From an uncultured Spirochaetaceae bacterium (GTDB lineage: Bacteria; Spirochaetota; Spirochaetia; DSM-27196; PWMO01): 64,000 nt of DNA. The notes beneath the pieces are model-generated. The model saw only the letters and a list, made by a program, of their open reading frames with translations, had not been told where the DNA came from and searched no databases. Location of the stretch: positions 391 to 64,390 of the forward strand of contig CAZZIE010000001.1 of NCBI GenBank assembly GCA_964654185.1. Direction: 5' to 3'. Shown piece by piece: positions 26,112 through 52,959 of this stretch (position 1 is the first letter of the stretch; each line of letters opens with the position of its first letter). A program made the position numbers and the translations under genes.

Positions 26112-26852
26112 ATGAGACGGATACTGAGCCTGCTGATCATGGTCGTTGTCACCGTATCCGTTTCCGCCTTCGACTTCAGACCCATCTCCCGTGACTTCGA
26201 TCCGCAGGGTCCGGGCGCGCTCCAGACCTTCCGGGTCACAAACAACAGAGACAGCCGGATTGCCGTTCGCATATCCATGTTCGAACGAGAGATGGAGGCG
26301 GACGGCAGTGAGGAACGAACCCGGGTGGAAGACCGATTCGTGGTCTTCCCGTCGCGCCTCACTCTGGATCCGGGTCAGACCCAGGTGATCCGCGTTCAGT
26401 GGCGGGGAGGCTCCGTTGATACGGAAGAGGCCTACCGCATTGTCGCGGAGCAACTGCCGGTAGACTTCGAGGAGCGCGCAGCGGAGGGGGGAACCCTCAA
26501 CATCCTCTTTCGCTATGTCGGCTCCGTCTACGTAGTGCCACCCGATGCCGAGCCCAATGTCACCGTCGAGGAGGCGCGCGTCGTGGATGCCGGGGAGGCC
26601 GGCGCTACTCTTGAGCTGACCATGCACAACGCCGGAACGGCACACACCATTCTGAAAGACCTCGCCCTGACGGTCACCCAGACCCGGGAGAACAATGCCA
26701 CCCAACGGGCGGCCTTCGCTCCTGAAGAGCTGTCCCCCGTCGCAGGCTCCAATCTCCTTGCCGGGGCGCGTCGCAACCTGACGCTTCAGCTCCCGGGAGA
26801 GTGGCAAGAAGGGCCTGCTGAGGTCTCCCTGGATTTCGATGTCACCCGATAG
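26112..26852 (+). CDS. periplasmic fimbrial chaperone (PapD-like)
   Basis: 246 aa with a signal peptide. It has chaperone-like blocks (FRVTNNRDSRIAV, LDPGQTQVIRVQW, YRIVAEQLP) and a two-domain length. Confidence 0.7.
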   Translation: MRRILSLLIMVVVTVSVSAFDFRPISRDFDPQGPGALQTFRVTNNRDSRIAVRISMFEREMEADGSEERTRVEDRFVVFPSRLTLDPGQTQVIRVQWRGGSVDTEEAYRIVAEQLPVDFEERAAEGGTLNILFRYVGSVYVVPPDAEPNVTVEEARVVDAGEAGATLELTMHNAGTAHTILKDLALTVTQTRENNATQRAAFAPEELSPVAGSNLLAGARRNLTLQLPGEWQEGPAEVSLDFDVTR

Positions 26853-29463: not shown

Positions 29464-29475
29464 GGAGGTGACCAC

Positions 29476-31814: not shown

Positions 31815-34225
31815 GCCACCGGCCGCCGCGCAGCCCCGCGATCCCGGCGTCCATCGCCGTCGCCGCCGCTGTCTTTGCCGCCGTTCTCTCGGCCTGCGAC
31901 GCCCCCTTCGCGGCAAGGCTCCAGCCGACCGCGCCCGTCCGCCCACCTGTCACCGTCACCACTCGCGTCGAGCCGGCAAGCGCCGGGACCGTGACCGTAA
32001 CCGGTGCGGCCGCCCCCTACCGTCGCGGAGACCACCTGCAAGTCACCGCCCACCCGGCTGAGGGGTGGCGCCTCCTCGGCTGGACCACGGAGCTGGGTGC
32101 CGCCGGCGCGCAGAGCGCCGGTGCGGCGGATCCCGGCCCTCTGGGGGCCGCCCCCGCCGCGGCGAGCCCTGGCCCCGCCGCCGGGACCAGCCCCGGCCCT
32201 GCGGCCGCCCCCGCCGCGGCGAGCCCTGGCCCTGCGGCCAGCCCCAGTCCCGGCCCTGCTGCCGGCGAGCCCACCGCTGCGGCGGGCGCCGCCCCACGAA
32301 CCGCCGCGGGCAGCGCCGCGGCCGGCCCGGCCTCCCCGCCCGCTAACCCCCTCTCCCTGGTTCTGTCGGAGAGCGTCACCGTCATTGCGCGTTTCGGACC
32401 GGCTGCCTACGCCGTCACGACGGACGTCCTGGGGAACGGCACGGTTCAGGTCTCCGGTGACGGATGGCAGCCCGGGACGCCGGAGGGCAGCGCGGATCCC
32501 GACGGAACCGCCGCTCCCGGGGCTGAGATCACCTTCGAGGCGGTACCTGCCGCCGGAAACGGCTTCTCCCACTGGGAGGGGAGCGCCGCCGGCGCGGCCA
32601 ACCCCGCGACCCTGACGGTCGCCGAGCCCCTTGACCTCACCGCGGTCTTCTCGGCGGAACAGTTTGCCCTCTCGTACGAAGCGGTCGGGGAGGGGAGCAT
32701 TGCCGTCGAGGTTGTCGACGGCGCGGCCGGAGGTGATACCGAGGCCGGGAGCGCCGATCCGACCGAGGGTGTCGTCTATGGAAGCGAGGTCCGTCTCACT
32801 GCCGAACCCGCGCCGGGCTGGCGCTTCCTCCACTGGGGGGACGACCCGGCGGACGCCGCGAACCCGAAAACCCTGACCGTCACGGGCAGTCGGCACATCC
32901 GAGCCGTCTTCGCCGCCAACGAGTGGACCGTTCTCCTCTACATGAACGGCGACAACGAGCTCGAAGCCAATCTCCTGGAAGATGTCAACGAGCTCGAAGC
33001 GGTGGATCTCTCCGGAACCGGCGTCACCGTGGTGGCGCTGGTCGACCGCGCCGACGGGCACGCCACGAGCAACGGTGACTGGCGGGGCACCCGGCTCTAC
33101 CGCATTTCCTTCGATCCCGACGGCACCAATACCGCCCTGGTCTCTCATCGTCTCGCAAGCGCCCGGATGGGCCTGAGCGATACCGGCGACGACGAAGAGC
33201 TCAATCTGGGAAGCGCGGCAACGCTATCGGATTTCCTGGATTTCGCTGCGGCGGAGTTTCCGGCTGAGAACACCGCCCTCATCTTCTGGGGGCACGGCGG
33301 CGGCTACCGGGCTGCATCGGGAGCGCGTACAGCTGCCGGAAGATACGGTCACGGCCACACTGGCGCTGCGACATGGTCGATCCCGGGACCCCGCGGAAAG
33401 GCGCCACTCTCCACCGCAGGACACCGGGCGGTCACCGTCGACGACGGAAGCGGCGGGGACCACCTTCTCACGCCCGAGCTCGGGGGCGCCCTTGCCGGGC
33501 GCGATCTCGATGTCCTGGCCTTCGACCTCTGCTACGGGGCGCTCCTCGAAGTTGCGTATGAGGTGCGCACTTCTGCGGAGCTGTTCATTGCCTCCCAGGA
33601 CGTCGTCGGCGCCGACGGCTGGGAGTATGACCGCTTCCTCGATCGCTTCCTCCAGGGTCCGCGCGACCCGGCGGATTTCGCCGCCGCTGCAACGGACGTC
33701 TTCGAAGCGAGCCACGCCCAGGCGCACCGCGCCACGATCTCCGTCCTGGACCTGGCAGAGATCGATGGTGTCGCCTCCGCGCTGGACGACCTCTCGGTGG
33801 CACTGGTCGAGTGGATAGCTGCAGGCAGCGCCTCACAGCGCCGGGCAACGCTCCGCGACGGGATCTTCTCGCAGGTCGAGGATTTCTATGCGACCCCCGG
33901 AGACCTCAACATCGACCTGCGGGACCTCTCACGGTACGTCGCGTCGGATCTCGGCGCCGCTTCCGCGGAGGCGGCCGCCCTGGATGCGGCGGTGGCGCAG
34001 GCGGTGCTGTACTCCTGGGCCGGTCCGGGGAACCCCCGCGCAGGGGGACTGAGCGTACACTACGTTCCGCTCGACTCCCTGGGATATCCCGTCGTCCATG
34101 CGGACTCCTACTTCGCCGACCAGACCGCCACGCCACCGCTTTCCTTCGTTGGGGCCTCCGAGTGGGTGCCCAACCCGAGTACCGGGACGGGACTCCTCTA
34201 TCGGCTCTGGTACGAGGCGCTCTGA
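31811..34225 (+). CDS. lipoprotein with InlB-B-repeat-like modules and a C-terminal peptidase C11 (clostripain-fold) domain
   Basis: N-terminus AVFAAVLSAC (lipobox). Three repeats of the type V.V...G.G.V ... GW.F.GW are separated by Ala/Pro linkers. The C11-like core is EWTVLLYMNGDNELE, VVALVDRADGH, a His in FWGHGGG and a Cys in AFDLCYGA. GGGAGG RBS. The ORF-track start at 31604 is an overlap artefact. Confidence 0.75.
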   Translation: MSHRPPRSPAIPASIAVAAAVFAAVLSACDAPFAARLQPTAPVRPPVTVTTRVEPASAGTVTVTGAAAPYRRGDHLQVTAHPAEGWRLLGWTTELGAAGAQSAGAADPGPLGAAPAAASPGPAAGTSPGPAAAPAAASPGPAASPSPGPAAGEPTAAAGAAPRTAAGSAAAGPASPPANPLSLVLSESVTVIARFGPAAYAVTTDVLGNGTVQVSGDGWQPGTPEGSADPDGTAAPGAEITFEAVPAAGNGFSHWEGSAAGAANPATLTVAEPLDLTAVFSAEQFALSYEAVGEGSIAVEVVDGAAGGDTEAGSADPTEGVVYGSEVRLTAEPAPGWRFLHWGDDPADAANPKTLTVTGSRHIRAVFAANEWTVLLYMNGDNELEANLLEDVNELEAVDLSGTGVTVVALVDRADGHATSNGDWRGTRLYRISFDPDGTNTALVSHRLASARMGLSDTGDDEELNLGSAATLSDFLDFAAAEFPAENTALIFWGHGGGYRAASGARTAAGRYGHGHTGAATWSIPGPRGKAPLSTAGHRAVTVDDGSGGDHLLTPELGGALAGRDLDVLAFDLCYGALLEVAYEVRTSAELFIASQDVVGADGWEYDRFLDRFLQGPRDPADFAAAATDVFEASHAQAHRATISVLDLAEIDGVASALDDLSVALVEWIAAGSASQRRATLRDGIFSQVEDFYATPGDLNIDLRDLSRYVASDLGAASAEAAALDAAVAQAVLYSWAGPGNPRAGGLSVHYVPLDSLGYPVVHADSYFADQTATPPLSFVGASEWVPNPSTGTGLLYRLWYEAL

Positions 34226-37200
34226 TGGGCCGGCTAGGTCTGGTAACGGCGATCTGGGGCGTCGGGATGTGTGCGATTGTCGCCGTTGAGCGCGCGGATG
34301 CCTCCACCTGCACGAAGCCGGTGGTGTGCTGGGACGGCTCCTGCGTCTACTTCAGCGATCAGTGCCCGCCCGAGCCGCCTCCCGATGATGGCCCCTCGGA
34401 TGGGGATGGAGACGGCATCCCGGATGGTGCCGACAACTGCCCGGGCACGGCAAACGCCGGACAGGCCGACTCGGACGGAGATGGCACCGGTGACGCCTGC
34501 GACTCGACTCCTCATGGCGGATCCGGAGGCGGAGGATCCGGCGGAGGGGGCTCCGGTGGAGGAGCGGGTGGTAGTGACGAGTTCGACGGCGTCGTAAACA
34601 GCCGCGGGGAGATCGACGACGCCCTCGATCACGCCGACGGGAACCTGGACGAGAGCGACGACTACTTCGACATTCCGTCCTCTCTGGACACCGCCGTGCC
34701 GGGTGCCAAAGGTGATCTCGAGGACATAACCGATCCCGCCGACGGCTCCCTCTCCAAAGTTCAGAATGAGGCTGATGATCTCGACAGCGCCGTGACGGCC
34801 GGCGAGAAGGCCCTCGAGGAGTTCGACGATCCGGTGGGTTCAGCGGACAAGCTTTCCGAATCCCACGTTGAGATAACGAGTGTGGACGTCCCGGCTCTCG
34901 AGTCTGCGGCGGGAGAGCTCGCGCTGACGGCGGGCATCGGTGGGGGCGGCGCCGTGGCGAACCACGGAGCCGCGGCGGACTACATTGCGGCAGGCGTTCA
35001 CTATGAGAGCGTCTCCGGCGCTGCCGAGGAGGTCGCAGAGGCCGCCGCCGAATCACGCGAGATTCTGGCGACCATGACGGAGGGTGCGACCGCAGCCACC
35101 GACGCGCTCGTCGATACCGAACGCACCTACGCCGCCGAGCGAGGCGGCGATCCCGTCGCCCTTGCCACGGGCACCTTCTTCACGCAGGAGACCGATCTCG
35201 CCGTGGCAACTCCGGCGCAGGTGCTCCTCCGGTTGCCCGAGGAGCTGCCCGGCCTGGGGGTCCTCGCCGCGCGGACCCCCGGTGCGGACAACTCCCTCGC
35301 GGGTGCTGCGGCGGCCGCTGCGGGGGACGCTACGCTGATCTTCCGCCGATACTACAACAGCTCCGCAGGGTCCGGCCACGCCGGGGGTACGGTCGCCATC
35401 GACGGCGTCACCGGTGCTGCCGGCAGCACCGGAACTCTGGGGCCGGGGTGGCGTCACTCCTTTCAGAGTCGCCTCTTCATTGGATACGACGGTGTCACCG
35501 CCGCCGAGGTGCGGGAGCTCCAGGAGCGCTCCTCCCGGGCGGCGACCCGGGTCCGGGAGGCACGAGACACCCTGGAGGATGCGCGGCGGAGTGCCGCATC
35601 CGCCGTCGAGGGGTACCGGGACTCCCTGGAGCTTGCCGAGGCGCTCGCGGTGGGGTGGCGGGACCTGAGAGATGCAGCTCTCGCCGCCGCCGAGGAAGGG
35701 GCGGAACTGCGGCGCGCCGCCGGGGAAGCGGATGAGCAGGTTGCGCCGTCGCACGCCGCGTCTGCGGAGGAGCTGGTGGCGCGAGCAGACGAGATCGAAG
35801 CGAGCCTTGCGGAGCTGGATGACCGTTTCAGCGGGCTCATCCGGCGCGCCGACAGAGCCGAGCGGAACGCCGAGAGTGCGCGCAGCTCCTACCAGGCGGT
35901 CATCGACTTTGTCGATGGGCTTCTCGTTGAGTGGAACTCCGACCAGGACGCCCGCGCCTCCGCGACCGCCGGAGTGACGACCGCCCTGGATCAGCGCGAC
36001 CGCGCGGCGGAGCATGAGGAGTCGCTGCGGAATCGAGTGAGCTCCATCGCGGACGCCCTGGCGAAGGTAGAGGACCTCGGCACCGACGAGCTTGACCGCG
36101 TCTCGGCCCTGCGCGACCGAACTGAGCACGTCCTCTCGGTAACGGGCGTCTTCCCGGATGATCCCGCCGCCTACGCGCCGTATGTGCGAGCGCAGGCGGG
36201 ATACCGCGAAGCCGTCGAGTTGCGAGACGGCCTCCTGCCGACCGGACTTGCCGCGGCGGAGCAGCGGCTCCGGGCAATCGAGACGGAGGGGCCCGTCATC
36301 ATCGGCACAATGGAGGAGAGCCGGGAGGTCACCGAGGCCGTCGCGGAGGACGCAGGAAACCGCAGCGACTACGCGGTCTCGGCGGCGCGTCGCAACGGTG
36401 CGCTCCCGTCCGGGGCGGACCCCGGCGCAACAGGGATGGGCACCTTCACCGTGATCGGCGCCGACGGTGCGCCCAGGCTCTTCCGGACCGGTGCGGAGCC
36501 CGCCTTTGCCGGGCCGACGAGTATCGGTGACGGCCTCGTCCACTACTACCGGCGCGACGTCACGGCGCACCCCGACGCACCCGGCGATTACGGACGCCTC
36601 ATCGTCCGGCGCGACGGGAGCTACATCCTGGAGGAGCGCAACGGCACCGAGCATCGGTACGATGCCTACGGGCGGCTGACAGGCGTTACCGCCCGGGGCG
36701 GTGCAGCGGTGACCCTGGAGTACGAGGGCCTCGGCGAAGGGGGACGTTTGCGCCGCGTCGTCGACGACGCCGGAAGGACGCTTGCCCTGCAGTACGACCG
36801 CGACCGTCTCGTCGAGGTCGCCGGGCCCGACGGCGCCGCGGTTCGCTACGGGTACGACGGCCAGGGGCGGCTTCACTCCGTAACTGATCCGAGTGGCCGC
36901 ACTCGGCACTATCGCTACCGGGGGCACCTTCTCACCTTCATCGGGACACCGCGACACGTAGCGGCCAGCGCCGAAGCGCCGTCGGGCGGTGGCGCCGCCG
37001 CGCCGGATCATGCCGACGGACCGGGCCGGCGCTACAACTACGAGCGGCGCGACGGGCGCGACGTCGTGACATGGACGGAGGATGAGGCGGGCCACCGTGA
37101 GCTCTTCAGCTACCATCCCGGTGAGAGCCCTTACGGCGCGGGCTACACCAAGCACACGGGCTACCACGACTGGACGGAAGCCGGCGCCGCCGTGACCACG

Positions 37201-40200
37201 AGGACCCACTATGACACCAACCTGCGGACCGTCCGTCGGGAGTGGCTGAACTCCGACGGCGTCGTTGCCGCCTGGGAGTCCTTTGTGCACGACGCGGCTG
37301 GCAACGTCGTTCGGCGCGAAGCGGGTGGCGACGGCGTCCGCCGCGTATGGCGCTTCGCCTACGACGGTGACGGCAATCTCGTGGCCCGGATCGATCCGGA
37401 CGGCGTCGAAGAGAGCTGGGAGTACGATGCCGACGGCAATGTGACCGCCCACACCAATGGCGCAGGCGAAACTACGCGATTGACCTGCGACGCTTCAGGG
37501 AGGCTCACCGGCGCGCACTACCCGACCGGCGCCGCCTTTCGGTACCGCTACGACACCGAGGGAAATCTCACGGAGATTCGGCGTCTCCTGAACGGGCGGT
37601 GGCACGCGACGCGGCTCGTCTATGGTCGCCATGGGTACCCGACCTCCGTGGAGTACCCGGATGGAGCCACGGCCGCACTTCGCCACGACGCGTATGGACG
37701 TCCGGCCGCCCATATCTCGCGCCTCGGACTGGCAACGGAGGACCGTCGGGGGCCGGCGGGGCGACTTCTGGAGCGCTCATACGCAGACGGGAGCGCCGAA
37801 GTCTTTCGGTACGACGCCGCCGGAAACCTGACGGAGACGAAGGATCGCCTCGGCCACGTCACGCGTTACGAGCACGACCCGCGTGGACTCGTCACCAGTG
37901 TGTTTCGGGAACGCATTGTCGATGTGGAGACCGGGGCGAATACCGTGGACGCAAGGACCTACCGATACCGTGCGGACGGCCGCCTGGCCGAACGGCGGGC
38001 GGGCCGCCGGGAAGGGGGCGAGTCGGCGCAGTGGCGGTACGACTACGACTATCGGGGCCGTCTCATCCGGGAGGAGGAAACCACCACGGGAACCCTCACG
38101 CGCTACGCCTACGACGCAGCGGGGAATCTGGTCGAACGCGCAACCGAGCCGACCGGTGTCGCGCCCGCCGGCGCGGGGACGGGTGCGGCGGCGGGTGCGG
38201 GGGCGGGCGCGGCGGGTGTCCCGGCCACGGCCCGGACCTTCGTCACGAAGTACGGCTATTCACCGGCCGGCCGCCTGGAGTGGACCGAAAACGGTGCAGG
38301 CGAGCGGACCCGCTTCGACCGCGACGGAGCCGGGGAGGTGACCGCCGCAATTGATCCGGCAGGACACCGGACACGGATTCGCCGGGACACTGCCGGGCGC
38401 ACCATCCTCACGACCGCGGTGCCCGGGGCGCCGCCGGAGGTGCGGCGCTTCGACGAGGCGGGGCATCTCATCGAGCTCAGCGACCCCGACGGCAGCACCT
38501 GGCGCTACGAGTACGACCCCGCCGGGCGCATCCGCCGCGAGAGCGCCCCGGACGGCGGCGAGACCACCTACACCTACCGCCATCTCACCCCCGGCATGGA
38601 GGTCACTCGCACCGACCCTCTGGGCAACGACTGGGTCCTGCGATTCGACGCCGCCGGTCGCCGCATCGGGGCAGTCGACCCGACCGGCGCCGAGACCAGC
38701 TTCGAGCGGGACGCAGCCGGCAGAATCACTACAGTGATCGATGCTCACGGCAACCGCCGCAGCTACGTCTACGACGCTGTCGGCAACGTCCTTGCCCGGA
38801 TGGATGCGTACGGTAACGGCCGCACCTTCACCTACGACGCGCTGGGCCACCCCGCCTCCGTCACGCTCCCGACTGGTGAGACGACGCGCTTCGGCTACGA
38901 CGCACTGGGCCGGCGCCGCTGGATCGAAGAACCCCTCGGCAACCGCACGCACTTCACCTACGACGTGGCGGGAAACCTCCTGGCCACGGAAACCCCGATG
39001 GGTCTGACCCGGCGCTTCACCTACGACGCTGCCGGACGCGCCGTTGCGCGGATCGAGCCGGACGGTGCGACCTACCGGTACGAGTATGACGCGCGGGGGC
39101 GCACCACGGGTGAGATCGATCCGACCGGAAGCGTTCGTCGGTACGAGTACGAGGAGAACGCCCGCGGCAACCTCATCGCGGAGGTCAACCGCCTGGGCGC
39201 GCGAAGGACCATCTCCTACGGTGCCGCCGGACGCATCGACTCAATGACTGACTTCAACGGCGTTCTCCATGACTTCGACTACGATCCCGCAGGACGGTTG
39301 ATCCGAGAGGTGGCCGAGGGGGAGGTGGTCCGCGCCTTCGAGTACGACGTGCGGGGAGATCTGGTGCGCGCGGCCAGCCCGGCCGCCGCGCTGGAGTTCG
39401 ACTACGACGAGCGGGGGCTTCTGGTCGAGAGCCGGGACCGGGACGCGGAGGTCGCCGTCGCCTACGAGTACGATGCCGCAGGGCGCCGCACCCGCGTCCT
39501 CACCGAGGGCTACGAGATCGCAACCTCCTACGGCGCCATGGGGGAGGTGCGGGAGGTCGCCTTCGACGACGGGTCGGCCTTCGGCGCAGGGGAGGGGCGG
39601 ATCCGCCTGGAGTACGACGAAAGCCTCCGCGAGCGCGTGCGCCGTTTTGCCGGGAGCCTGGTCGCCGAGCGCCACTATGATGAGGCGGGGCGCCTCGCCG
39701 GAGTGGTTCATCGAGGGGGCGGTGGCGTCGCCGGTGAGGTCCTGGACGCGGAGGCCTACGTCTACGATCGGGACGGGCGGCGCATCTACACGGTGGACGA
39801 GGCTGGTGGCCTCACCGCGTACCGGTACGACACCGCGGGTCGTCTGGCTGCGGCGCTCTATCCTCACGAGGATGGTGTGGTGGCGTCTCACCTTCGACAG
39901 CTCAAGGCAGTCGGCATGGTGTCGCCGCCGGCGCAGGCGGACCGGCTTGGTACCATTGGCGCGGCCACCGGTTCGCGCGGCGGCTCGCGCGGCAGCTCCG
40001 TCGCGGTTGCGGGACGGATCACCATTCCCTCTGAAGAGAGGGATCTCATCCGGGAGGTTACGGAGCAGGTCCTCCCTCGGCGCAAGGGCGGCACGTTCCT
40101 CTCTCGGGAGATGTGGGGCGAGAGCTTCACGTACGACGAGCGGGGCAACCTCACCGGGGTGGCCACACCGCTCGGGACGATCGGGTTTGCCTACGACGCT

Positions 40201-41664
40201 GCGGACCGGCAGGTTCGCGCCGGAGCCCTCTCCGTCGCGTACGATGCAGCCGGAAACGTCACGCGTCGCGCCGTTGGAGCGGCCGCTCTGGAGTACGACT
40301 ACGACGCCCGCCACCGGATGACCCGCATCCACGGGCGCACCCCGGAGGGCCGCGATATCGATCTGCGCTACGGCTACGACGCCCTGGACCGCCGGTCGTA
40401 TCGCCTCGATGTGCCTTCCGGTGACCGTACGGAGTCCGCGACGGCGGGGACGGGCGGACCGGCCGCGACGGCGGCGCCCGGGACGGCAACGCTGGAGAGA
40501 GCGGTCTACCAGGGCTTCTCCTTCATGCGTCTGGCTACGCTGGAGGCGCATGGAGTCGGCAGCGTGCAGGGTGATTTTTCCGGCGTGGATGCGCCGAGCC
40601 TTCCCGGCCGGCTCCCGCGACCGAAGCCGCGGCGCGGCGCCGGTCCGCGATCCCGCGTCGACGCAGGGCAGGGCGCCGCAGTGTTGACCCGACTGGAGAT
40701 GGCGGCGGTGGCCGTTTCCGTGCAGCAGGTTCCCGCCGCTGTGGTATCGCCCCGGCAGGTCAGCCACTTCGGGGTGGATGTGCTCGGGAGCGTAACCCTT
40801 CGCGTGACGGCGCACGCGAGTGCCGCAGGCAACCGTGCGGCCGGGTCGACCGGTGCAATCGTGGAGGATCTGGCGTACCGCGCCTTCGGGGCGGTACGGG
40901 CCGGTGACGTTCGCGGTGCCATACCCTTCGGCTACACCGGCAAGGTCGTGGACGTCGCAACGGCGGTCTACGATTACGGCCTGCGAGACTACGCGCCCAG
41001 TACCGGCCGATTCACCACGGTGGACCCTCTACGGGCCGGCACGAACTGGTACGCCTACGTTCACAACGATCCGATCAATCTCATCGACAGGTTCGGCCTG
41101 GAGGCCTCCGTCCCCGGCAACCCGGGTCCCGGCGGCTTTCCCCTCGATCCTTCGGTCCAGGTCTTTCGCAGCGACGGTAACATCGACCAGCTGGCATTCG
41201 ACCAACGCTACGGCTTCGGCACCATCGCCGGCACACAATCCTGTCAGTCCGTCGCGGTCTGCAATCTCTACGCCCAGGAAACCCCCGGCGGCATGACGGT
41301 CGAGCAACTCGACGTCGTGGTTTCGGTCAGCCTCTCCTCCGGCCACCTGGAAGAGGAAGGCGGCTCCGTCACCGACTTTTCCGGCCTGAGCCGAACCATT
41401 GCAACGGAGCTCGATCGCGACGACTATTATGAATACGTGTACCCGGCACCGGACTACGAGCGCCTAACAATGTCTGAACACGACTTCGAACAATCCGACG
41501 CGGCCGCGGGGGTGGTGCAACTCTACAACCCTCAATATGACGTGAATCACTTTGTGACCCGGAGTCGCGATCGCACATACGATCCTCTACCCTCGTCTCG
41601 ACCGACAGCTTCGGGGTATGTCGTAGAAGAGGTTCGTCCACTTCAACTTCTGGATCTTCACTAG
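34225..41664 (+). CDS. RHS/YD-repeat polymorphic toxin with signal peptide, TSP3-like repeats, coiled-coil insertion and an unassigned C-terminal domain
   Basis: ATG at 34225 overlaps the upstream stop (TGATG). The hydrophobic N-terminus ends in ADAS. DGDGDGIPDGADNCPG...DSDGDGTGDACD is a thrombospondin-type-3-like Ca-binding repeat. GDPVALATGTFF is a plug motif. Dozens of YD repeats follow (YxYDxxGRL type). The RHS core end is DPLRAGTNWYAYVHNDPINLIDRFGL, followed by about 187 aa of lower-GC sequence. Confidence 0.9.
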   Translation: MGRLGLVTAIWGVGMCAIVAVERADASTCTKPVVCWDGSCVYFSDQCPPEPPPDDGPSDGDGDGIPDGADNCPGTANAGQADSDGDGTGDACDSTPHGGSGGGGSGGGGSGGGAGGSDEFDGVVNSRGEIDDALDHADGNLDESDDYFDIPSSLDTAVPGAKGDLEDITDPADGSLSKVQNEADDLDSAVTAGEKALEEFDDPVGSADKLSESHVEITSVDVPALESAAGELALTAGIGGGGAVANHGAAADYIAAGVHYESVSGAAEEVAEAAAESREILATMTEGATAATDALVDTERTYAAERGGDPVALATGTFFTQETDLAVATPAQVLLRLPEELPGLGVLAARTPGADNSLAGAAAAAAGDATLIFRRYYNSSAGSGHAGGTVAIDGVTGAAGSTGTLGPGWRHSFQSRLFIGYDGVTAAEVRELQERSSRAATRVREARDTLEDARRSAASAVEGYRDSLELAEALAVGWRDLRDAALAAAEEGAELRRAAGEADEQVAPSHAASAEELVARADEIEASLAELDDRFSGLIRRADRAERNAESARSSYQAVIDFVDGLLVEWNSDQDARASATAGVTTALDQRDRAAEHEESLRNRVSSIADALAKVEDLGTDELDRVSALRDRTEHVLSVTGVFPDDPAAYAPYVRAQAGYREAVELRDGLLPTGLAAAEQRLRAIETEGPVIIGTMEESREVTEAVAEDAGNRSDYAVSAARRNGALPSGADPGATGMGTFTVIGADGAPRLFRTGAEPAFAGPTSIGDGLVHYYRRDVTAHPDAPGDYGRLIVRRDGSYILEERNGTEHRYDAYGRLTGVTARGGAAVTLEYEGLGEGGRLRRVVDDAGRTLALQYDRDRLVEVAGPDGAAVRYGYDGQGRLHSVTDPSGRTRHYRYRGHLLTFIGTPRHVAASAEAPSGGGAAAPDHADGPGRRYNYERRDGRDVVTWTEDEAGHRELFSYHPGESPYGAGYTKHTGYHDWTEAGAAVTTRTHYDTNLRTVRREWLNSDGVVAAWESFVHDAAGNVVRREAGGDGVRRVWRFAYDGDGNLVARIDPDGVEESWEYDADGNVTAHTNGAGETTRLTCDASGRLTGAHYPTGAAFRYRYDTEGNLTEIRRLLNGRWHATRLVYGRHGYPTSVEYPDGATAALRHDAYGRPAAHISRLGLATEDRRGPAGRLLERSYADGSAEVFRYDAAGNLTETKDRLGHVTRYEHDPRGLVTSVFRERIVDVETGANTVDARTYRYRADGRLAERRAGRREGGESAQWRYDYDYRGRLIREEETTTGTLTRYAYDAAGNLVERATEPTGVAPAGAGTGAAAGAGAGAAGVPATARTFVTKYGYSPAGRLEWTENGAGERTRFDRDGAGEVTAAIDPAGHRTRIRRDTAGRTILTTAVPGAPPEVRRFDEAGHLIELSDPDGSTWRYEYDPAGRIRRESAPDGGETTYTYRHLTPGMEVTRTDPLGNDWVLRFDAAGRRIGAVDPTGAETSFERDAAGRITTVIDAHGNRRSYVYDAVGNVLARMDAYGNGRTFTYDALGHPASVTLPTGETTRFGYDALGRRRWIEEPLGNRTHFTYDVAGNLLATETPMGLTRRFTYDAAGRAVARIEPDGATYRYEYDARGRTTGEIDPTGSVRRYEYEENARGNLIAEVNRLGARRTISYGAAGRIDSMTDFNGVLHDFDYDPAGRLIREVAEGEVVRAFEYDVRGDLVRAASPAAALEFDYDERGLLVESRDRDAEVAVAYEYDAAGRRTRVLTEGYEIATSYGAMGEVREVAFDDGSAFGAGEGRIRLEYDESLRERVRRFAGSLVAERHYDEAGRLAGVVHRGGGGVAGEVLDAEAYVYDRDGRRIYTVDEAGGLTAYRYDTAGRLAAALYPHEDGVVASHLRQLKAVGMVSPPAQADRLGTIGAATGSRGGSRGSSVAVAGRITIPSEERDLIREVTEQVLPRRKGGTFLSREMWGESFTYDERGNLTGVATPLGTIGFAYDAADRQVRAGALSVAYDAAGNVTRRAVGAAALEYDYDARHRMTRIHGRTPEGRDIDLRYGYDALDRRSYRLDVPSGDRTESATAGTGGPAATAAPGTATLERAVYQGFSFMRLATLEAHGVGSVQGDFSGVDAPSLPGRLPRPKPRRGAGPRSRVDAGQGAAVLTRLEMAAVAVSVQQVPAAVVSPRQVSHFGVDVLGSVTLRVTAHASAAGNRAAGSTGAIVEDLAYRAFGAVRAGDVRGAIPFGYTGKVVDVATAVYDYGLRDYAPSTGRFTTVDPLRAGTNWYAYVHNDPINLIDRFGLEASVPGNPGPGGFPLDPSVQVFRSDGNIDQLAFDQRYGFGTIAGTQSCQSVAVCNLYAQETPGGMTVEQLDVVVSVSLSSGHLEEEGGSVTDFSGLSRTIATELDRDDYYEYVYPAPDYERLTMSEHDFEQSDAAAGVVQLYNPQYDVNHFVTRSRDRTYDPLPSSRPTASGYVVEEVRPLQLLDLH

Positions 41665-41700
41665 GCATAGCTGTCAACGCGATGGCGGGAGTAAACAGTC

Positions 41701-42603
41701 ATGGATCTGGTAATGCGAATCGTGCTGTTGGGTCTCTTTGCTTCAGTTGTCACGGCAGCAACTGGAGCGAAGGAACTCCATCTTGTGCCTGTCGACGGCG
41801 GGCGCCTCATCATGGGATCTGAGGAGGGAGATGACAACCCACTACACGAAGTTGTTCTTTCAAGCTTCATGATGGCAGAGCGAGAGATCACGGTCGGTGA
41901 GTTTCGAGAGTTCACCGTCGCCGAGGAGATACCGTTTCGATGGACGTCGTATAACTTCACGCAGTACGTGGGCCGACCCGCAGGATATGTGATCCCCGAC
42001 GATCGCGCCATGTATTTCGTTATGTGGTATGAAGCGGTTTGGTATGCGAATTATCGGAGCGAGTTGGAAGGGCTTGAGAAGGCCTACGGGTTCGACGAAC
42101 AAGCTTTGCGCGACTATTTGTACGACTTTCGCGAGGGTCGCGACCCTCCCAGCATAGAGTGGGACCGCAGTGCAAACGGGTACCGTTTGCCAACAGAGGC
42201 AGAATGGGAGTTTGCTGCGACCGACCGAGGGCAAGCTCGTACTGTCACTGATGAGTTGCTCCTACGCAGGTCGTGGGTTCGTGAGAACGCCGACGGTAAG
42301 GTGCATCCTGTGAAGGCGAAGGTACCGACCGAACTGGGGTTGTACGACATGTTGGGTAACGTATCGGAATGGTGCTGGGACTACTACGACTCCAGGTACT
42401 ATGACCGGTCGCCGGTTCGCGACCCCACCGGTCCAGCAACGGGGGAGGAATTGTCGGTCTTTCCTGGGCGCAAAGACATTCGGGTATTCCGCGGTTGTTC
42501 TTGGCGAACTCCGCTCAATTTCTGCGGACCTCACGAAAGAATGGCAACTATTGCACCGAATCGAGGCACCATCGGCATCCGCCTTGTTCGGAATGCGGAA
42601 TGA
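41701..42603 (+). CDS. secreted FGE-sulfatase (SUMF1/C-type-lectin-like) fold protein, in the immunity-gene position
   Basis: 300 aa with an N-terminal signal/TM segment (IVLLGLFASVVTAATGA). FGE-sulfatase family blocks are present (GYRLPTEAEWEFAA, GLYDMLGNVSEWCWDYY, VFRGCSW, GIRLVRN). GC is about 50-55%, clearly below the flanks. Confidence 0.8.
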   Translation: MDLVMRIVLLGLFASVVTAATGAKELHLVPVDGGRLIMGSEEGDDNPLHEVVLSSFMMAEREITVGEFREFTVAEEIPFRWTSYNFTQYVGRPAGYVIPDDRAMYFVMWYEAVWYANYRSELEGLEKAYGFDEQALRDYLYDFREGRDPPSIEWDRSANGYRLPTEAEWEFAATDRGQARTVTDELLLRRSWVRENADGKVHPVKAKVPTELGLYDMLGNVSEWCWDYYDSRYYDRSPVRDPTGPATGEELSVFPGRKDIRVFRGCSWRTPLNFCGPHERMATIAPNRGTIGIRLVRNAE

Positions 42604-42816
42604 ACTCTATGTTCCCTTGATGCAGCACGCACTGCTGAGCGGTCGGGTCTGCTTCTGGGGCAGGATCTGCCGGCGGCTGTGCTGAAGGGCCGGCAAGACT
42701 CTACCGCACCCAGTGGAAACGGCGTACATTCCGGCATTACGTTGGATTCTGGCGAGCGGTAGGGTTCCCGGGTCCAAGAGAGCCAGTACGTCCCGGCGCC
42801 GCACCGGCCGAAGAGG

Positions 42817-43554
42817 ATGGATTGCATGGTAGGCGTTCGAGTCGGGACCTCCGGGTGGAACTATCCGCACTGGGAAGGGCCATTCTATCCGGAGGGACTG
42901 CCGGCGACGAAGTGGTTTGAGCACTATCAGCGGCACTTCGATACCGTCGAGATTAACAACACTTTCTACAATCTGCCGAGCCGCCAGACTGCCGCAGCGT
43001 GGCGGGACCAGGCTGCCGAAGGTTTCCTTTACACCGTGAAGGCGAGCCGGTACATCACGCATATGAAGAAGCTCAAGGATCCGGCCGACACAACGGAGCG
43101 GCTCTTTGATCGCCTCCGGATCCTCGAAGACACGGTCCAGGTCGTGCTCTTCCAGCTTCCGCCCCGGTGGAAACGGAATACGGCGCGGCTCGCCGACTTT
43201 TTGCGCCATCTCCCGGCGCAATGGAGGTACGTCTTCGAGTTTCGTGACTCCTCCTGGTTTCATGACGATGTGTACAATCTTCTGAGGGAGCACAACGCTG
43301 CATTCTGCGTTTTCGAGCTTGGAGAACTGGAATCCCCTTTGACGGTGACTTCCGACACGGCGTACATCCGCCTCCACGGCCCGGCGGGGAAGTACCAGGG
43401 GAGCTACGATCGGAAGACACTGTCCGCGTGGGCGCGCCAATGCCGCTCCTGGGCAGCGGAAGGACTGGATGTCTGGGTGTACTTCGACAACGACGACCGC
43501 GGGTACGCCCCCCGGAATGCCCTGACTCTCAAGGAGATGGTTGCGGAGTTGTGA
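42817..43554 (+). CDS. DUF72 (YecE-like) family protein
   Basis: The N-terminal VRVGTSGWNYPHWEGPFYPEG ... FDTVEINNTFY signature is typical of DUF72. The start may be ATG 42826. Confidence 0.75.
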   Translation: MDCMVGVRVGTSGWNYPHWEGPFYPEGLPATKWFEHYQRHFDTVEINNTFYNLPSRQTAAAWRDQAAEGFLYTVKASRYITHMKKLKDPADTTERLFDRLRILEDTVQVVLFQLPPRWKRNTARLADFLRHLPAQWRYVFEFRDSSWFHDDVYNLLREHNAAFCVFELGELESPLTVTSDTAYIRLHGPAGKYQGSYDRKTLSAWARQCRSWAAEGLDVWVYFDNDDRGYAPRNALTLKEMVAEL

Positions 43555-44770: not shown

Positions 44771-46492
44771 ATGCGAAATCGGCGAATCGAGAAGGCCCCG
44801 GTCGGTATTGAGGGCTTCGACTTCATAACCGGTGGCGGGCTGCCCAGGGGACGCTTGACCCTCGTTACGGGCCCCGCCGGCAGCGGTAAGACGATATTCG
44901 GAGTTCAGTTTCTCGTTCACGGAGTTCGGGATCACGGCGAGCCCGGCGCTTACGTCGGGTTCGAGGAAACCGAAGAGGAGTTGCTCGACAACTTCGGCAG
45001 CTTCGGCTACGGCCTGGAAGAGCTGACCGGTGCGAACAAACTCCTCCTGGATCACATTGAAGCCTTTCCACTCAACACCTCGGAGGCGGGGGACTACGAT
45101 CTGGACGGGCTCTTCGTACGTCTGGATGAGACCTTGAAGAGCGTCGGGGCCAAACGGCTTGTTCTGGATGCATTTCCCGCACTCTTCGCCGGCTTCACGA
45201 ACACTCAGGCGGTGCGCTCGGGACTCATGCGCCTGTTCAGCTTTCTGAAGAGCCGGGGTGTCACCGCAATCGCAACGGCGGAGAGCGCCACCCAGGTCGC
45301 GCGGTACGGACTCGGGCGGTCCCTTTCGGACTGCGTCATCAACTTTGACACGACCCTTCACGGTCGAATTGCCACCAGGCACCTTCGCGTTGCCAAGTAC
45401 CGCGGTTCAATGCATCACGACGATGAGTTTCCCTTCCTGATCTCCAACAACGGCGTCAGGGTGATGCCGGTGACCTCAGTGCACCAGGATTATCCGGTTT
45501 CCCGGGAAAGGATCACCACCGGAATCCCGAGCCTGGACGCAATGCTCGGCGGTGGTGGCTTCTACCGGGGCAGCAGCATTCTCGTGTCCGGTGAGGCCGG
45601 GACAGGCAAGACGAGTATTGCCGCCCATTTCGCACGGTCCGCCTGCTTGCGTAACGAGCGCAGCCTCTACTGCGCCTTCGAAGAGGCCGCGGACGAGGTT
45701 GTTCGCAACATGTCGTCGATAGGTCTGAACTTTCCGGAATGGATTGATCAGGGGCTGCTGAAAGTCTTCGTCTCCCGGGCAACCCGCCACGACCTGGAGG
45801 TTCACCTCGCCAACCTGGAGGAAGCCGTCGTTGAGTTCCGCCCGACGGTCATGGTGATCGACCCGGTATCGAATCTCCTGCGGGCGGGTTCTTTCGGAGA
45901 CGTGGCGTCAATGATTTCGCGGCTGGTTGATTTCCTGAAGTCGCACGGTGTTACCGCCATGTTCACCGTCCTGAGCAAGTGGGGCGGTGGCGAGTACCAG
46001 GAATCCATTGATATCTCCTCGGTCATGGATGCCTGGATTCAGCTGCGAAATCAGGAGGCGAGTGGTGAGCACACCCGGCTTCTGTCGATTGCGAAGGCGC
46101 GGGGAATGCCCCACTCCAATCAGGTTCGGGAGTTCATGATTACGGAGAATGAAATTCAACTGGTCGATGTATACGCCGCCGGAGGCGAAGTTCTGACCGG
46201 CTCGGCGCGGGTTGCCCGACTGGAAGCGGACCGCCGGGACGCGATCCGGCGGCGCCTGGAAGTGGAACGGGCCGAGCGGGAGCTGGCGAGCCGCAGAACG
46301 GCCATTGAGAAGCAGATAGCTGAACTGAAAGGGGAGCTCGAACAGATCGAGGAGGACTACAGGTACAGCCGCCTCTGGCATCAACAGGAGGCGGCATCCC
46401 ACGAGAGTGAGCGGAACCTGGTTGCACGGGAGCGCTGGGCGGAGGGAGCGATGGAGGGGGCGAGTGGCAAAGACGACGGGAAGTCGGAGTGA
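44771..46492 (+). CDS. kaiC: KaiC-family double RecA-like ATPase with a C-terminal coiled-coil extension
   Basis: Two KaiC domains: Walker A GPAGSGKT plus catalytic FEETEEE, and Walker A GEAGTGKT plus FEEAADE. DISSVMD aligns with the cyanobacterial phospho-site segment (ISTITD). The last ~90 aa are heptad-like and charged (RLEADRRDAIRRRLEVERAERELASRRTAIEKQIAELKGELEQIEE). Confidence 0.85.
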   Translation: MRNRRIEKAPVGIEGFDFITGGGLPRGRLTLVTGPAGSGKTIFGVQFLVHGVRDHGEPGAYVGFEETEEELLDNFGSFGYGLEELTGANKLLLDHIEAFPLNTSEAGDYDLDGLFVRLDETLKSVGAKRLVLDAFPALFAGFTNTQAVRSGLMRLFSFLKSRGVTAIATAESATQVARYGLGRSLSDCVINFDTTLHGRIATRHLRVAKYRGSMHHDDEFPFLISNNGVRVMPVTSVHQDYPVSRERITTGIPSLDAMLGGGGFYRGSSILVSGEAGTGKTSIAAHFARSACLRNERSLYCAFEEAADEVVRNMSSIGLNFPEWIDQGLLKVFVSRATRHDLEVHLANLEEAVVEFRPTVMVIDPVSNLLRAGSFGDVASMISRLVDFLKSHGVTAMFTVLSKWGGGEYQESIDISSVMDAWIQLRNQEASGEHTRLLSIAKARGMPHSNQVREFMITENEIQLVDVYAAGGEVLTGSARVARLEADRRDAIRRRLEVERAERELASRRTAIEKQIAELKGELEQIEEDYRYSRLWHQQEAASHESERNLVARERWAEGAMEGASGKDDGKSE

Positions 46493-46778
46493 GCCCTGGC
46501 GGTTCGAGCTGTACGTTGCGGGTACCTCGCCGAAGCAGCAGCTCGCACTCCGAAATCTCACGGACATCTGTGATGCCGCACTCGGTACGGACTACACCAT
46601 CGACGTCATTGATATTCTCGAGCATCCCGGATTGAGCAGGGAACGGCAGATCCTCGCGACACCGACGGTGATCCGGATCACTCCATTGCCGGAGCGACGG
46701 ATTGTCGGAGATCTCACCCAGCGTGATGCGGTGTACCGCGGTCTGGAGCTGCCCCGGCTGCAGGAGGATCGCGTCTAG
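46464..46778 (+). CDS. kaiB: KaiB-like thioredoxin-fold protein
   Basis: About 104 aa from GTG 46464 (GGAGG 6 nt upstream), overlapping the kaiC 3' end. It has the KaiB signature ELYVAG.SP.S..A..NL..IC ... IDVIDILEHP....E.QILATPT. Confidence 0.8.
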   Translation: MAKTTGSRSEPWRFELYVAGTSPKQQLALRNLTDICDAALGTDYTIDVIDILEHPGLSRERQILATPTVIRITPLPERRIVGDLTQRDAVYRGLELPRLQEDRV

Positions 46779-46791
46779 TAAAGCGGATTAC

Positions 46792-47772
46792 ATGAGTATC
46801 ACCCTGAGAAGCGCTCTCGAACAAGCAGAACCCAATCTCAACCGAGTCTTGTACCAACTTGCCGACGGCATTCTCCTGGTGGATAAAGAGGGGATTGTCG
46901 TCTATGCCAATCCGGCGGCGGAGAGCCTCTTCGGCTATGAGAGTGGCAAGATGGAAGGGTGCATGCTTGGCTATCCGGTGATCGCAGGGATGGCCGAGGT
47001 AGAGATTCCTCAGGACGATGGTAACATTGCGGTGGCGGAGTTTCGCTCAGTGGAAATCACCTGGCGCGATCGTCCGGCGTACCTCGCGAGTTTTCGCGAC
47101 ATTACTCAGCGAAAGAACGCGGAGAAGCGGGTTGCTGCCCTGAGCAAGGCGCTGGTAAGCGCGTATGAGCGGGCGCAGCGGGAAATCGGCCATGAGCTCC
47201 ACGACGGCGTCGGACAGATGCTGCTGGGCGTCCGTCTCTCCCTGGACAGCGCCCGCCGGGCCGGAGCGGACGAGATGCCGCAGCGCCTGGAGAAGCTCGG
47301 CACCATGGTGGATGAGATCGTTGCGGAGCTCAGACGCATGTCCCATGAGCTCAAGCCGGCGGTTCTGGACGACTTCAGCTTTCTGGAGGCCCTCCACAGC
47401 CACCTGGAGCGCCTCCGCGACGAGACCGGCCTGGAGGTCGAGTTCACCCACCGCGGCCTTTCGGGGCGCAACACCGACATGGTGGAAACCGTCGCTTTCC
47501 GCATCATTCAGGAGGCGCTGACGAATGTCATCCGCCACGCGGACGTCGCCCGTGCGACCCTCCTGGTGGAGGAGGTGGATGATGTCCTGCGTCTCCGCAT
47601 TGCCGACAGCGGCAAGGGGTTCGAGGTAGCCGACCACTCGGACGCTTCCATCGGCTTGCGCGGCATGGCCGAGCGGGCGGAGCTGATCGGGGGTACCTTC
47701 GAAGTCGCATCCGCCACGGGCCGCGGTACCGCCATCACCGCCGTGCTCCCTCTCACTGATTCGGCACGGTAA
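46792..47772 (+). CDS. PAS-domain sensor histidine kinase (HisKA_3/NarL-partner type)
   Basis: 326 aa from ATG 46792. PAS-like N-terminus (GILLVDKEGIVVYANPAAESLFGY), an H-box HELHDGVGQ, and an HATPase_c domain (ADSGKGF ... GLRGMAERAELIGG). Confidence 0.85.
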   Translation: MSITLRSALEQAEPNLNRVLYQLADGILLVDKEGIVVYANPAAESLFGYESGKMEGCMLGYPVIAGMAEVEIPQDDGNIAVAEFRSVEITWRDRPAYLASFRDITQRKNAEKRVAALSKALVSAYERAQREIGHELHDGVGQMLLGVRLSLDSARRAGADEMPQRLEKLGTMVDEIVAELRRMSHELKPAVLDDFSFLEALHSHLERLRDETGLEVEFTHRGLSGRNTDMVETVAFRIIQEALTNVIRHADVARATLLVEEVDDVLRLRIADSGKGFEVADHSDASIGLRGMAERAELIGGTFEVASATGRGTAITAVLPLTDSAR

Positions 47773-51409: not shown

Positions 51410-52959
51410 CCGGCACGGACGACCGGCCGCGGCGTCTCGCTGAGTTCGGCGAGCTTCCCGGTGAGGAGGAGCAGTATCCCCTGAGTTTCTGCGAACGCCA
51501 CCGGGCGGTGCTGCTCCGGGAGGGAACGCCGGGGGCGGACCCGCCGGGGAAGGGCCTGCCGGGGAAGGGCCCGCCGGGGGCGGGCGCGCTGGTCGGCGTG
51601 GCGGCGCCGGTTCCGTCCTACGTGGAGGAGCGGTTGCGACGACTCCACGGCGGGCCGGTAACCGTCGTTCCCCTGGCACCGCAGGATGTCTACCAGTTCC
51701 TGGCGGAGCGGCGGCTTCATCGGGAGGACGCGCGCCGGCAGCGCCGGGTGGCAAGGCGGAGTGCAGCCGTGCGCGACGGTGCGGGCCCGGGTCCGCGCTC
51801 CCTGGGATTGACTGCGAATGATGCGAGAGGCGGAGAAGTCACTGTCGGAGGCGCCGGTGAGGCGTTTCTTCAGGGCATTCTCGACGAGGCGGTGCGTACC
51901 GGAGCTTCGGATGCCCACCTCATGGCCGGTTCCGCCGGCGTCTCTCTTCGCTTTCGCCGGGAGGGCGCTCTCGGAGAGGCGCGGGCGGTGCCCCGGGAGC
52001 TCACGGCGCGTCTCGTCGCTCGGCTGAAGGTGCGGATTCGAGGAAACCCCGGACAGCGCCGTAAGCCCCAGGAAGGGCGCTTTGGCTTCACCGTGCGAGG
52101 CACCGTCTACGAGGTTCGCGCCTCCATTCTGCCTGGCCTCCACGGAGAGAGTGTGTCCCTGCGCTTCCTGCGGACCTTCAAAGGTGGCATCTCCCTGGAC
52201 GGCCTCGGCTTCCCCGGTCGGATCGTCACGCTCCTGAACGGGGTCGCAGAGCGTACCGACGGTCTGTTCCTGGTAACGGGCCCGACAGGAAGCGGGAAGA
52301 CCACCACTCTCCACGCCGTTGCCCGGCTCCTGTGCCGGCGCGACCGTCGCGTCGTCACCATTGAGGATCCCATTGAGTACGAGCTCCCCGAGGCGGTGCA
52401 GCTGCAGACGAACGCGCGATTGCACCTCACCTTTGACCTTCTGCTGACCAAGGCGCTGAGACACGATCCGGACGTGCTCCTTCTCGGCGAGATTCGGGAT
52501 GCCGAGACCGCGGCCCTGGCGGTGCGCAGCGCCCTTACCGGTCATCTGGTCCTTGCAACCATGCACACCGGCACGGTGTTCACCGGCATCCTGCGATTGC
52601 GCAACCTCGGCGCGACATCCGATGAGGTCGCCTCGGCCCTCTGCGGCGTACTCTCTCAGCGCTTGGTTCGTCGTGTGGGGATCTCCCCGGTGGGTGCCTC
52701 CCCGGTGGGTGCCTCCCCGGTAGGTGTTCCCCCGGTGGGTGACACGCGACAGGCGTCCGCCGACGGGCGGATTCCCATCTGTGAGGCCCTCATTGACCCG
52801 ACGGACCCGACGAATTTCGCACCGGCAGGACGATTCGTTGAAGCAGTGGGACGGGATTGGCTGTACCTCGATATGAAGGACGATGCCAGGCGCCTCGTCT
52901 CAGCCGGTGTAACCACCTGGGAAGACGTGGCGCGTGTTGCGCGAATTGGAGGCGTGTGA
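51406..52959 (+). CDS. gspE: type II/IV secretion ATPase (GspE/PilB family)
   Basis: Walker A GPTGSGKTTT, Asp box, Walker B LLLGEIRD, His box ATMHTG. GTG at 51406 overlaps the secretin stop (GTGA); an alternative GTG is at 51385. A (SPVGA)x4 insertion is encoded by 15-bp repeats at 52684-52743. Confidence 0.85.
   Translation: MTGTDDRPRRLAEFGELPGEEEQYPLSFCERHRAVLLREGTPGADPPGKGLPGKGPPGAGALVGVAAPVPSYVEERLRRLHGGPVTVVPLAPQDVYQFLAERRLHREDARRQRRVARRSAAVRDGAGPGPRSLGLTANDARGGEVTVGGAGEAFLQGILDEAVRTGASDAHLMAGSAGVSLRFRREGALGEARAVPRELTARLVARLKVRIRGNPGQRRKPQEGRFGFTVRGTVYEVRASILPGLHGESVSLRFLRTFKGGISLDGLGFPGRIVTLLNGVAERTDGLFLVTGPTGSGKTTTLHAVARLLCRRDRRVVTIEDPIEYELPEAVQLQTNARLHLTFDLLLTKALRHDPDVLLLGEIRDAETAALAVRSALTGHLVLATMHTGTVFTGILRLRNLGATSDEVASALCGVLSQRLVRRVGISPVGASPVGASPVGVPPVGDTRQASADGRIPICEALIDPTDPTNFAPAGRFVEAVGRDWLYLDMKDDARRLVSAGVTTWEDVARVARIGGV

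Follow-up and report, generated by a model that had tools for sequence, protein, structure and literature searches.

A predicted exported immunity protein with a formylglycine-generating enzyme fold beside an RHS toxin gene of a Spirochaetaceae bacterium

Can a protein with the fold of the formylglycine-generating enzyme (FGE) act as the immunity protein of a secreted toxin? The question is raised by a locus within 64,000 nucleotides (nt) of DNA from an uncultured Spirochaetaceae bacterium (Spirochaetota; contig CAZZIE010000001.1, positions 391 to 64,390), a stretch that we refer to as the window. Here, a gene for a predicted exported FGE-sulfatase-fold protein (41701..42603, + strand) directly follows the gene of an RHS/YD polymorphic toxin. 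An earlier note, made from the sequence alone, had interpreted the two genes as a toxin/immunity cassette in which the FGE fold serves either as a binding module or as an enzyme that reverses a modification. The cassette interpretation is supported by the analysis described below: in all 12 independent loci examined, the gene next to this toxin domain is an FGE-fold gene, its products carry export signals, and it stays with the toxin domain whatever the scaffold. We consider it probable that the FGE-fold protein is exported and confers immunity, by binding, to a papain-like RHS toxin that acts on the envelope.

The gene pair and its products

The open reading frame (ORF) at 41701-42603 (+) starts with ATG and encodes a protein of 300 amino acids (aa). 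Its true start could be at 41713 (Met5), because the ortholog at locus L001 begins at the Met5 equivalent. Residues 27-297 (41779-42591, +) matched the Pfam family PF03781 (FGE-sulfatase) with an E value of 1e-35 (cut-off 23.3 bits). The four motifs quoted when the fold was proposed, RLPTEAEWEFAA (aa 162-173), NVSEWCWDYY (220-229), FRGCSW (263-268), and GIRLVR (292-297), were all present in the translation. An AlphaFold model built from 48 homologs had a pLDDT of 93.1 and matched FGE-fold structures in Foldseek with E values of 6e-19 to 1e-14; true FGE structures were matched at about 1e-16, with a TM of about 0.6. The closest solved protein is TvpA (2y3c; sequence E 9.6e-26; TM 0.74/0.80; 28% identity). 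Family match, model, and structural search thus agree with the 300-aa FGE-sulfatase-fold product described in the earlier note. The first ~23 residues (41701-41769, +) are predicted from their composition to be a signal peptide, MDLVMRIVLLGLFASVVTAATGA/KE. It has a hydrophobic core at aa 7-19 (mean Kyte-Doolittle value 2.54) with small residues after it, and fits the charged/hydrophobic/small-residue layout of a Sec signal peptide, in line with the signal or anchor sequence suspected before. In the AlphaFold model, this stretch is a low-confidence helix detached from the domain.

ORF coordinates confirmed the reported spacing of the two genes: the RHS stop codon occupies 41662-41664, and the FGE-fold gene begins 36 nt later on the same strand. 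The intergenic spacer (41665..41700, +) contains a Shine-Dalgarno sequence, GGGAG, at 41687-41691, 9 nt ahead of the ATG. Scans of the junction for promoter-like or terminator-like sites between the two genes gave nothing above chance. A shared low GC content had also been claimed for the gene and the toxin tip. Their GC fractions are indeed low (0.556 and 0.60, respectively), but part of the contrast with the RHS body (0.698) comes from the body itself, which is unusually GC-rich compared to the next five genes (0.585-0.64).

The RHS gene (34225..41664, +) is an ORF of 2479 codons whose start agrees with that of the database protein P0121 (2479 aa). The encoded protein begins with a Sec-type signal peptide, MGRLGLVTAIWGVGMCAIVA, which is followed by a thrombospondin-3 repeat (TSP_3), DUF6531, the RHS shell, the RHS-associated core (TIGR03696, Rhs_assc_core; E 1.9e-17), and a C-terminal toxin domain. 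RHS_repeat and TEN_YD-shell domains were present in its homologs. The core ends at 41068..41103 (+) with DPINLIDRFGLE, a DPxGL-type junction that marks the beginning of the variable toxin domain, and a junction of the same type stands ahead of homologous toxin domains at loci L001, L005, L007, L012, and L022. The protein therefore has the features by which an RHS cassette is recognized: repeats, a core ending in DPxGL, and a variable C-terminal domain.

The toxin domain, or tip, comprises 186 aa (41104..41661, +), for which Pfam, NCBIfam, and the PDB sequences gave no match. A word-indexed protein search with the tip returned nothing, missing even the protein to which the tip belongs, and the same search with a family profile returned 8 proteins. 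An exhaustive HMMER search over 1.84 billion representatives was needed to recover the family; it yielded 36 representative clusters at E<=1e-3, the match always being extreme C-terminal. No consistent family was found when 27 members were compared with Pfam, even at E<=1. In the alignment of these 27 members, Cys47 (41242-41244) and His149 (41548-41550) are invariant, while Gln29 (41188-41190) and Asp160 (41581-41583) are conserved in at least 90%; on the basis of this conservation we propose the four residues, all on the + strand, as the putative catalytic set. In the AlphaFold model of the tip (pLDDT 93.5), Cys47 opens a helix (47-59), His149 lies in a strand (147-154), and Asp160 follows a strand (157-159). 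As modeled, this is the element order of papain-like topology, with Gln, Cys, His, and Asp in sequence, the Cys at a helix N terminus, and the His and Asp on the sheet. Judged by conservation and by the order of secondary-structure elements, we class the tip as a putative papain-like, possibly C39-like, cysteine hydrolase domain that is absent from Pfam.

Co-occurrence of the tip and the FGE-fold gene

Linkage was examined from both sides, that is, among homologs of the FGE-fold protein and among members of the tip family. At every one of the 12 independent loci, the FGE-fold gene was located immediately downstream of the tip, the called gaps ranging from −8 to 103 nt, so the survey proposed in the earlier note, of FGE-fold genes following toxin genes elsewhere, gave a positive answer for this particular toxin domain. 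The closest FGE homologs were P0002 (85% identity; L001/L002), P0003 (64%; L005), P0007 (43%; L006), P0009 (46%; L007), and P0014 (38%; L012-14). Each of the five is encoded directly 3′ of a gene ending in an RHS-core DPxGL junction and a homologous tip. When tip-family members were taken as the starting point, an FGE-sulfatase gene was again the next gene after P0123, an RHS protein of 2123 aa whose tip is 53% identical (L022/23); P0160, which belongs to two tandem tip+FGE cassettes (L015/16); P0155, which adjoins an eCIS_core/DUF4157 gene (L017-21); P0150, which has a double-glycine leader and LysM (L024); and P0134 (L025). In a profile search over all fetched loci, the tip appeared only at positions paired with an FGE-fold gene.

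The partner is kept over four kinds of scaffold: full RHS proteins, orphan RHS-tip modules (L012, L015/16), the eCIS_core/DUF4157-adjacent arrangement (L017), and the double-glycine-leader/LysM protein (L024). Orphan tip+FGE modules that have no full RHS gene were present at L012-14 and L015/16. Since the FGE partner tracks the toxin domain across scaffolds and stays with orphan tips, it behaves as an immunity gene and not as a secretion adaptor.

The linkage data would also fit a domain-specific helper. Its signal peptide takes the RHS protein through the periplasm, where a chaperone, maturation factor, or modifier could fold, activate, or release the toxin domain. We regard an accessory factor of this kind as unlikely. 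Known adaptors and chaperones of polymorphic toxin systems follow the trafficking domain and not the toxin tip (e.g., Zhang et al. 2012), whereas the FGE-fold partner accompanies the tip over all four scaffold kinds and in orphan modules. The examined loci have no further conserved gene downstream of the tip/FGE pairs, and so no second candidate for immunity. In addition, the arrays that consist of FGE genes alone (L008-11, L027/28) resemble orphan immunity genes. The accessory enzyme modifying the toxin, which had been offered earlier as the alternative to an immunity protein, is likewise the less likely of the two readings.

The tips and their partners also diverge in parallel: over the 12 pairs, their pairwise identities are correlated, with r = 0.84 and a Mantel p of about 2e-4. 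This speaks for the immunity reading, but could be explained simply by co-inheritance. Several observations weigh against an immunity function for the FGE-fold protein or against parts of that interpretation. In three syntenic genomes, the whole block has been inherited vertically; relative to L022, the tip is 53%, the partner 54%, and the neighbors 43-65% identical, and no sign of accelerated divergence, diversifying selection, or cassette swapping at the locus was seen in the three genomes. Linkage is not universal in the wider clade, as FGE homologs with 39-44% identity occur at L008-11 and L027/28 with no tip nearby. The structural matches of the tip are weak: the best PDB match had an E value of 0.014, the C39 domain of PCAT1 was matched with a probability of 0.92 and a TM of 0.40, and the other weak PDB matches, again to C39-type or further papain-like peptidases, included AvrPphB, LapG, and 3isr. 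Against BFVD, the best match was an unnamed protein with an E value of 1.3e-3, and a “Peptidase C39 domain” protein was matched at 0.02. Finally, toxicity, binding of the toxin, protection, peptidase activity, and the envelope target are all inferred.

Some of the surveyed loci contain further genes beside the pair. At L015 (4261-8027) and L016, the tandem tip+FGE cassettes have diverged from each other and are followed by a third RHS-core remnant with an unrelated C-terminal domain (FGCLFMC...). The region 573-5279 of L012 looks like an array of orphan modules: a 214-aa fragment with the RHS-core remnant TYTDPSGL at its start, a 295-aa ORF, the tip+FGE pair, and ORFs of 203 and 65 aa; the extra ORFs had no Pfam match. 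At L017 (2760-3463; also at L018-L021), the tip+FGE pair is directly followed on its 3′ side by a 118-aa ORF with GSTHGCIRINNLD, which resembles the active-site motif of YkuD L,D-transpeptidases, and then by a 115-aa signal-peptide protein. Going by these sequence features, the two ORFs could be a second envelope-targeting toxin/immunity pair; neither had a Pfam match at E<=0.01.

FGE-fold genes located away from any tip have neighborhoods of their own. At L008 (1244-6816), Mu-type and IS21-family transposase genes come after the gene for P0011 (44% identity; tandem FGE genes), and immediately upstream of P0011 at L009 is a further FGE-fold gene. At L027 (7001-9975) and L028, P0024 (39%) and an FGE paralog of 335-345 aa flank a Gp49/HTH toxin-antitoxin-like pair. 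A 3272-aa SpvB/TcdB/RHS toxin gene, which itself has small downstream ORFs (151 aa, DUF6560), is located ~5 kb upstream of the two FGE genes; no tip homolog was found near the latter. By analogy with what has been suggested for arrays of Tsi3, a known immunity protein considered below, the FGE genes at L008-11 and L027/28 may be orphan immunity genes, or they may be something else.

Catalytic features and export of the FGE-fold partners

True FGE has two active-site cysteines that hold copper (Lopez et al. 2021, 10.1101/2021.05.21.445229). In the human enzyme, the pair is C336 and C341, as named in PDB mutant entries. The protein studied here has Cys266 and Cys275 (RGCSWRTPLNFC; 42496..42525, +) in the C-terminal stretch beside GIRLVR, which we take to be the position where the copper-binding pair of an FGE is expected. 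The earlier note had proposed an alignment of the catalytic cysteines as a check, and the pair turned out not to be conserved: Cys266 and Cys275 occur together only in the four closest spirochaete proteins, and both are missing from 6 of 10 aligned partner homologs. Their spacing is 9 residues, compared to 5 in human FGE, and the two may form a disulfide. HMMER alignments of the protein to true FGEs end near residue 250, short of both cysteines. The residues that are invariant among the partners belong to GYRLPxxxEWE and LGNxxExC, general motifs of the fold that are also found in unrelated PF03781 proteins. Judging from these sequence features, the protein is not a true FGE and would be non-catalytic as one.

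An ordinary FGE that matures a sulfatase and stands next to the RHS gene by chance was considered and rejected, and we give it almost no credence. The PF03781 match is strong, and homologs are annotated at source as “formylglycine-generating enzyme family protein,” as such an enzyme would be. However, matches to NCBIfam equivalogs all fell far below the cut-offs, FGE-specific models gave no match, and the cysteine pair is not conserved. A nearby sulfatase gene with a CxPxR motif had been named earlier as a sign of ordinary FGE function. No sulfatase family was detected among the 38 ORFs scanned in the 64-kb window, and no CxPxR motif was present in a real ORF of the window; the motif scan (C/S-x-P-x-R) matched three off-frame segments of 51-70 aa. 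Adjacency to a single toxin domain in every one of the 12 loci cannot be due to chance.

The FGE fold hosts several chemistries, and FGE, EgtB, PvdO, and CalU17 were all among the structural matches, so an exported enzyme of another kind, one that reverses a modification made by the toxin or modifies the envelope target in advance, deserves attention. An enzymatic role has also not been fully excluded for the FGE-domain immunity protein Tsi3 (Lopez et al. 2021). We nevertheless judge enzymatic immunity to be quite improbable. The invariant residues correspond only to the general PF03781 motifs and do not form a catalytic constellation specific to the partners, the FGE cysteines are not conserved, and the closest structure, TvpA, is that of a binding protein. 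For Tsi3, protection went hand in hand with binding, and no cross-protection was given by non-cognate homologs (Lopez et al. 2021). As far as sequence and model comparison go, the relation to TvpA and the loss of the cysteine pair agree with the binding-module use of the fold that had been put forward earlier.

TvpA is the variable protein of a diversity-generating retroelement (DGR) of Treponema denticola. It resembles the product studied here in its FGE/C-type-lectin fold and its spirochaete source, and it acts by binding and not as an enzyme. As it ranked first among PDB matches in sequence as well as in structure, it raised the possibility that the gene is a DGR target encoding a variable ligand-binding protein unrelated to the toxin. 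This candidate was rejected, and we hold it to be extremely improbable. A sensitive blastn search (word size 7) found no template-repeat copy of 41601-42700 in the window, the best non-self match covering 37 nt with 76% identity, and none of the 38 ORFs scanned was a reverse transcriptase. Unlike the TvpA gene, the gene is tied to a toxin and not to a retroelement.

The preferred interpretation, binding-type immunity, also has to account for the location of the partners. All FGE partners begin with either a signal peptide or a lipobox; in L005 and L007, this became evident after correction of the start, to an upstream TTG in L005 and to an upstream ATG that overlaps the toxin stop codon in L007. 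The partner at L025 (2348-3457; 369 aa) has an extra C-terminal bacterial SH3_3 domain, and the toxin at L024 carries LysM. SH3_3 and LysM are peptidoglycan-binding types of domain. Immunity proteins are located where their toxins act. Because the predicted immunity protein is extracytoplasmic in every lineage, the toxin substrate should be in the cell envelope, where it would be peptidoglycan or an envelope protein. The export signals of all partners are thus consistent with the envelope-acting toxin envisaged in the earlier note.

Taken together, a mechanism can be outlined as follows. The RHS protein would be exported by Sec, with a shell ending at the DPxGL core junction and carrying the 186-aa tip, a putative papain-like, possibly C39-like, cysteine hydrolase with Gln29, Cys47, His149, and Asp160 at its active site. 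The FGE-fold gene would be co-transcribed with the RHS gene and its product exported to the periplasm, where the calcium-stabilized FGE/C-type-lectin-like fold may serve as a scaffold for binding and not as an oxidase. By binding and blocking the toxin domain, the FGE-fold protein would protect the producer and its kin.

Relation to known systems and genomic setting

The FGE fold is not new in an immunity role, since Tsi3 of Acinetobacter baumannii, the immunity protein of Tse3, a type VI secretion system (T6SS) effector, has been published (Lopez et al. 2021; J Bacteriol 203:e00281-21). Tsi3 is an FGE-domain protein that lacks the catalytic cysteines, and immunity depends on its binding to the effector; the function of Tse3 is not known. 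Homologs of Tsi3 are found in Proteobacteria, 98% of them in T6SS-positive genomes, near vgrG, PAAR, or DUF4123 genes, and they often form arrays of non-identical paralogs that are commonly on the strand opposite to tse3 (Lopez et al. 2021). Compared by published description and not by sequence, the two systems share an FGE-domain partner devoid of the catalytic cysteines beside a toxin gene, as well as the occurrence of arrays. In contrast to Tsi3, the partner described here is encoded on the same strand, 36 nt past a Sec-signal RHS gene, in Spirochaetota, and in contrast to Tse3, the toxin is a defined Cys/His domain. No T6SS family was found among the 38 ORFs scanned in the window; the neighbors of the RHS locus are a chaperone-usher pair, a C11 peptidase, and type II secretion-type secretin/E/F genes. 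What is new here is a Sec-signal RHS toxin in Spirochaetota, together with other non-T6SS scaffolds, and the tight same-strand coupling, consistently exported partners, and defined cognate toxin domain.

A search for the Tsi3/Tse3 module among plasmid records yielded Klebsiella and Burkholderia FGE genes located amid redox, efflux, or metabolic genes and outside any toxin module, and tblastn of the tip against plasmids gave no match. Tpe1/Tpi1 of A. baylyi was considered as a possible equivalent of Tse3/Tsi3 and rejected, as Tpe1 is a metallopeptidase of the DUF4157 type and its immunity protein is a small membrane protein. In T6SS pairs of the Tpe/Tpi type, such as VgrG2b-PA0261, the immunity protein is exported or anchored with its bulk facing the periplasm (Wood et al. 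2019, PMC6899460). The pair described here is similar in that a predicted exported immunity protein would suit a toxin acting in the periplasm. It differs in that the Tpe/Tpi immunity proteins are small and of unrelated fold and the toxin is a zinc metallopeptidase.

The general plan known for the toxin-immunity cassettes of RHS/YD polymorphic toxins (Zhang et al. 2012, PMC3482391) is readily recognized in the locus and its relatives: a shell, a DPxGL core, a variable C terminus, a downstream immunity gene, and orphan modules (L012, L015/16). Unlike the immunity proteins of those cassettes, the predicted one here is large (300 aa), exported, and FGE-fold, and the text of the census does not mention FGE, sulfatase, or DUF323. 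One toxin family in the census, Tox-PLC39, has Cys, His, and Asp residues, occurs on RHS proteins and with a PVC-metallopeptidase (DUF4157/eCIS_core), and has no immunity family listed (Zhang et al. 2012, Table 2). The tip likewise has Cys, His, and Asp in that order, is found in RHS and DUF4157/eCIS_core settings, and gives weak matches to the C39 fold, while, unlike Tox-PLC39, it has no Pfam match in any of the 27 members. The tip may be Tox-PLC39, a likeness drawn from description and not from sequence.

A Peptidase_C11 (clostripain-family) gene with InlB B-repeat domains (31604-34225, +) immediately precedes the RHS gene, and the stop codon of the former overlaps the start codon of the latter (TGATG, 34222-34227). 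The C11 gene is also present at L001 (3-1874) and at L022 (3532-5004), where the C11-RHS pairing is kept with a 4-nt overlap at 43-46% protein identity; it is possibly a dedicated processing protease for the RHS protein. In its 5′ part, at 31750-32500, the GC fraction reaches ~0.80 over an Ala/Pro/Gly-rich low-complexity stretch. Genes for an usher-like protein of the outer membrane and for an SCPU protein (spore coat protein U/Csu-type pilin) occur a few genes upstream of the C11-RHS-FGE genes (26839-30399, +). L022 (1-2448) has usher-like and ~310-aa genes at matching positions; there, the similarity of the usher, a faint one, was the only one seen. The arrangement hints at a surface-fiber system tied to the toxin locus.

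Downstream, a DUF72 gene (42817-43554, +) is located between the FGE-fold gene and an AAA_18-like gene. It is also present in L022 and is missing from the otherwise syntenic L001/L002, and therefore represents an indel within a conserved block. Genes for KaiC (573 aa), KaiB, and a PAS-HisKA_3 histidine kinase follow in a row (44771-47772, +), an order kept in L001, L002, and L022. About 6 kb downstream of the toxin locus are type II secretion-like genes for a secretin, a GspE-type ATPase, and a GspF-type platform protein (48773-54064, +), by way of which the Sec-dependent RHS protein might be exported.

If the FGE-fold protein is an immunity protein, FGE-like immunity is extended from the proteobacterial T6SS to Sec-exported RHS toxins, orphan cassettes, a DUF4157/eCIS_core locus, bacteriocin-like toxins, and other phyla, and the FGE immunity fold gains a defined partner, a compact Cys/His toxin domain with a confident model that is outside Pfam. 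A much broader view, which we consider doubtful, is that FGE-fold immunity forms one pan-bacterial, secretion-system-independent superfamily directed against a single unrecognized family of envelope-acting, C39-like cysteine-peptidase toxins, Tse3 included. In that case, the Gln/Cys/His/Asp set would predict the biochemistry of Tse3, and the FGE fold would be an ancient specific inhibitor of that peptidase family. With a 186-aa tip and a partner of about 275 aa, the pair should be tractable for studies of toxin inhibition by the FGE fold and of the target cleaved in the envelope. More generally, genes annotated as “formylglycine-generating enzyme family protein” and located right after RHS or other polymorphic toxin genes should be interpreted as immunity genes.

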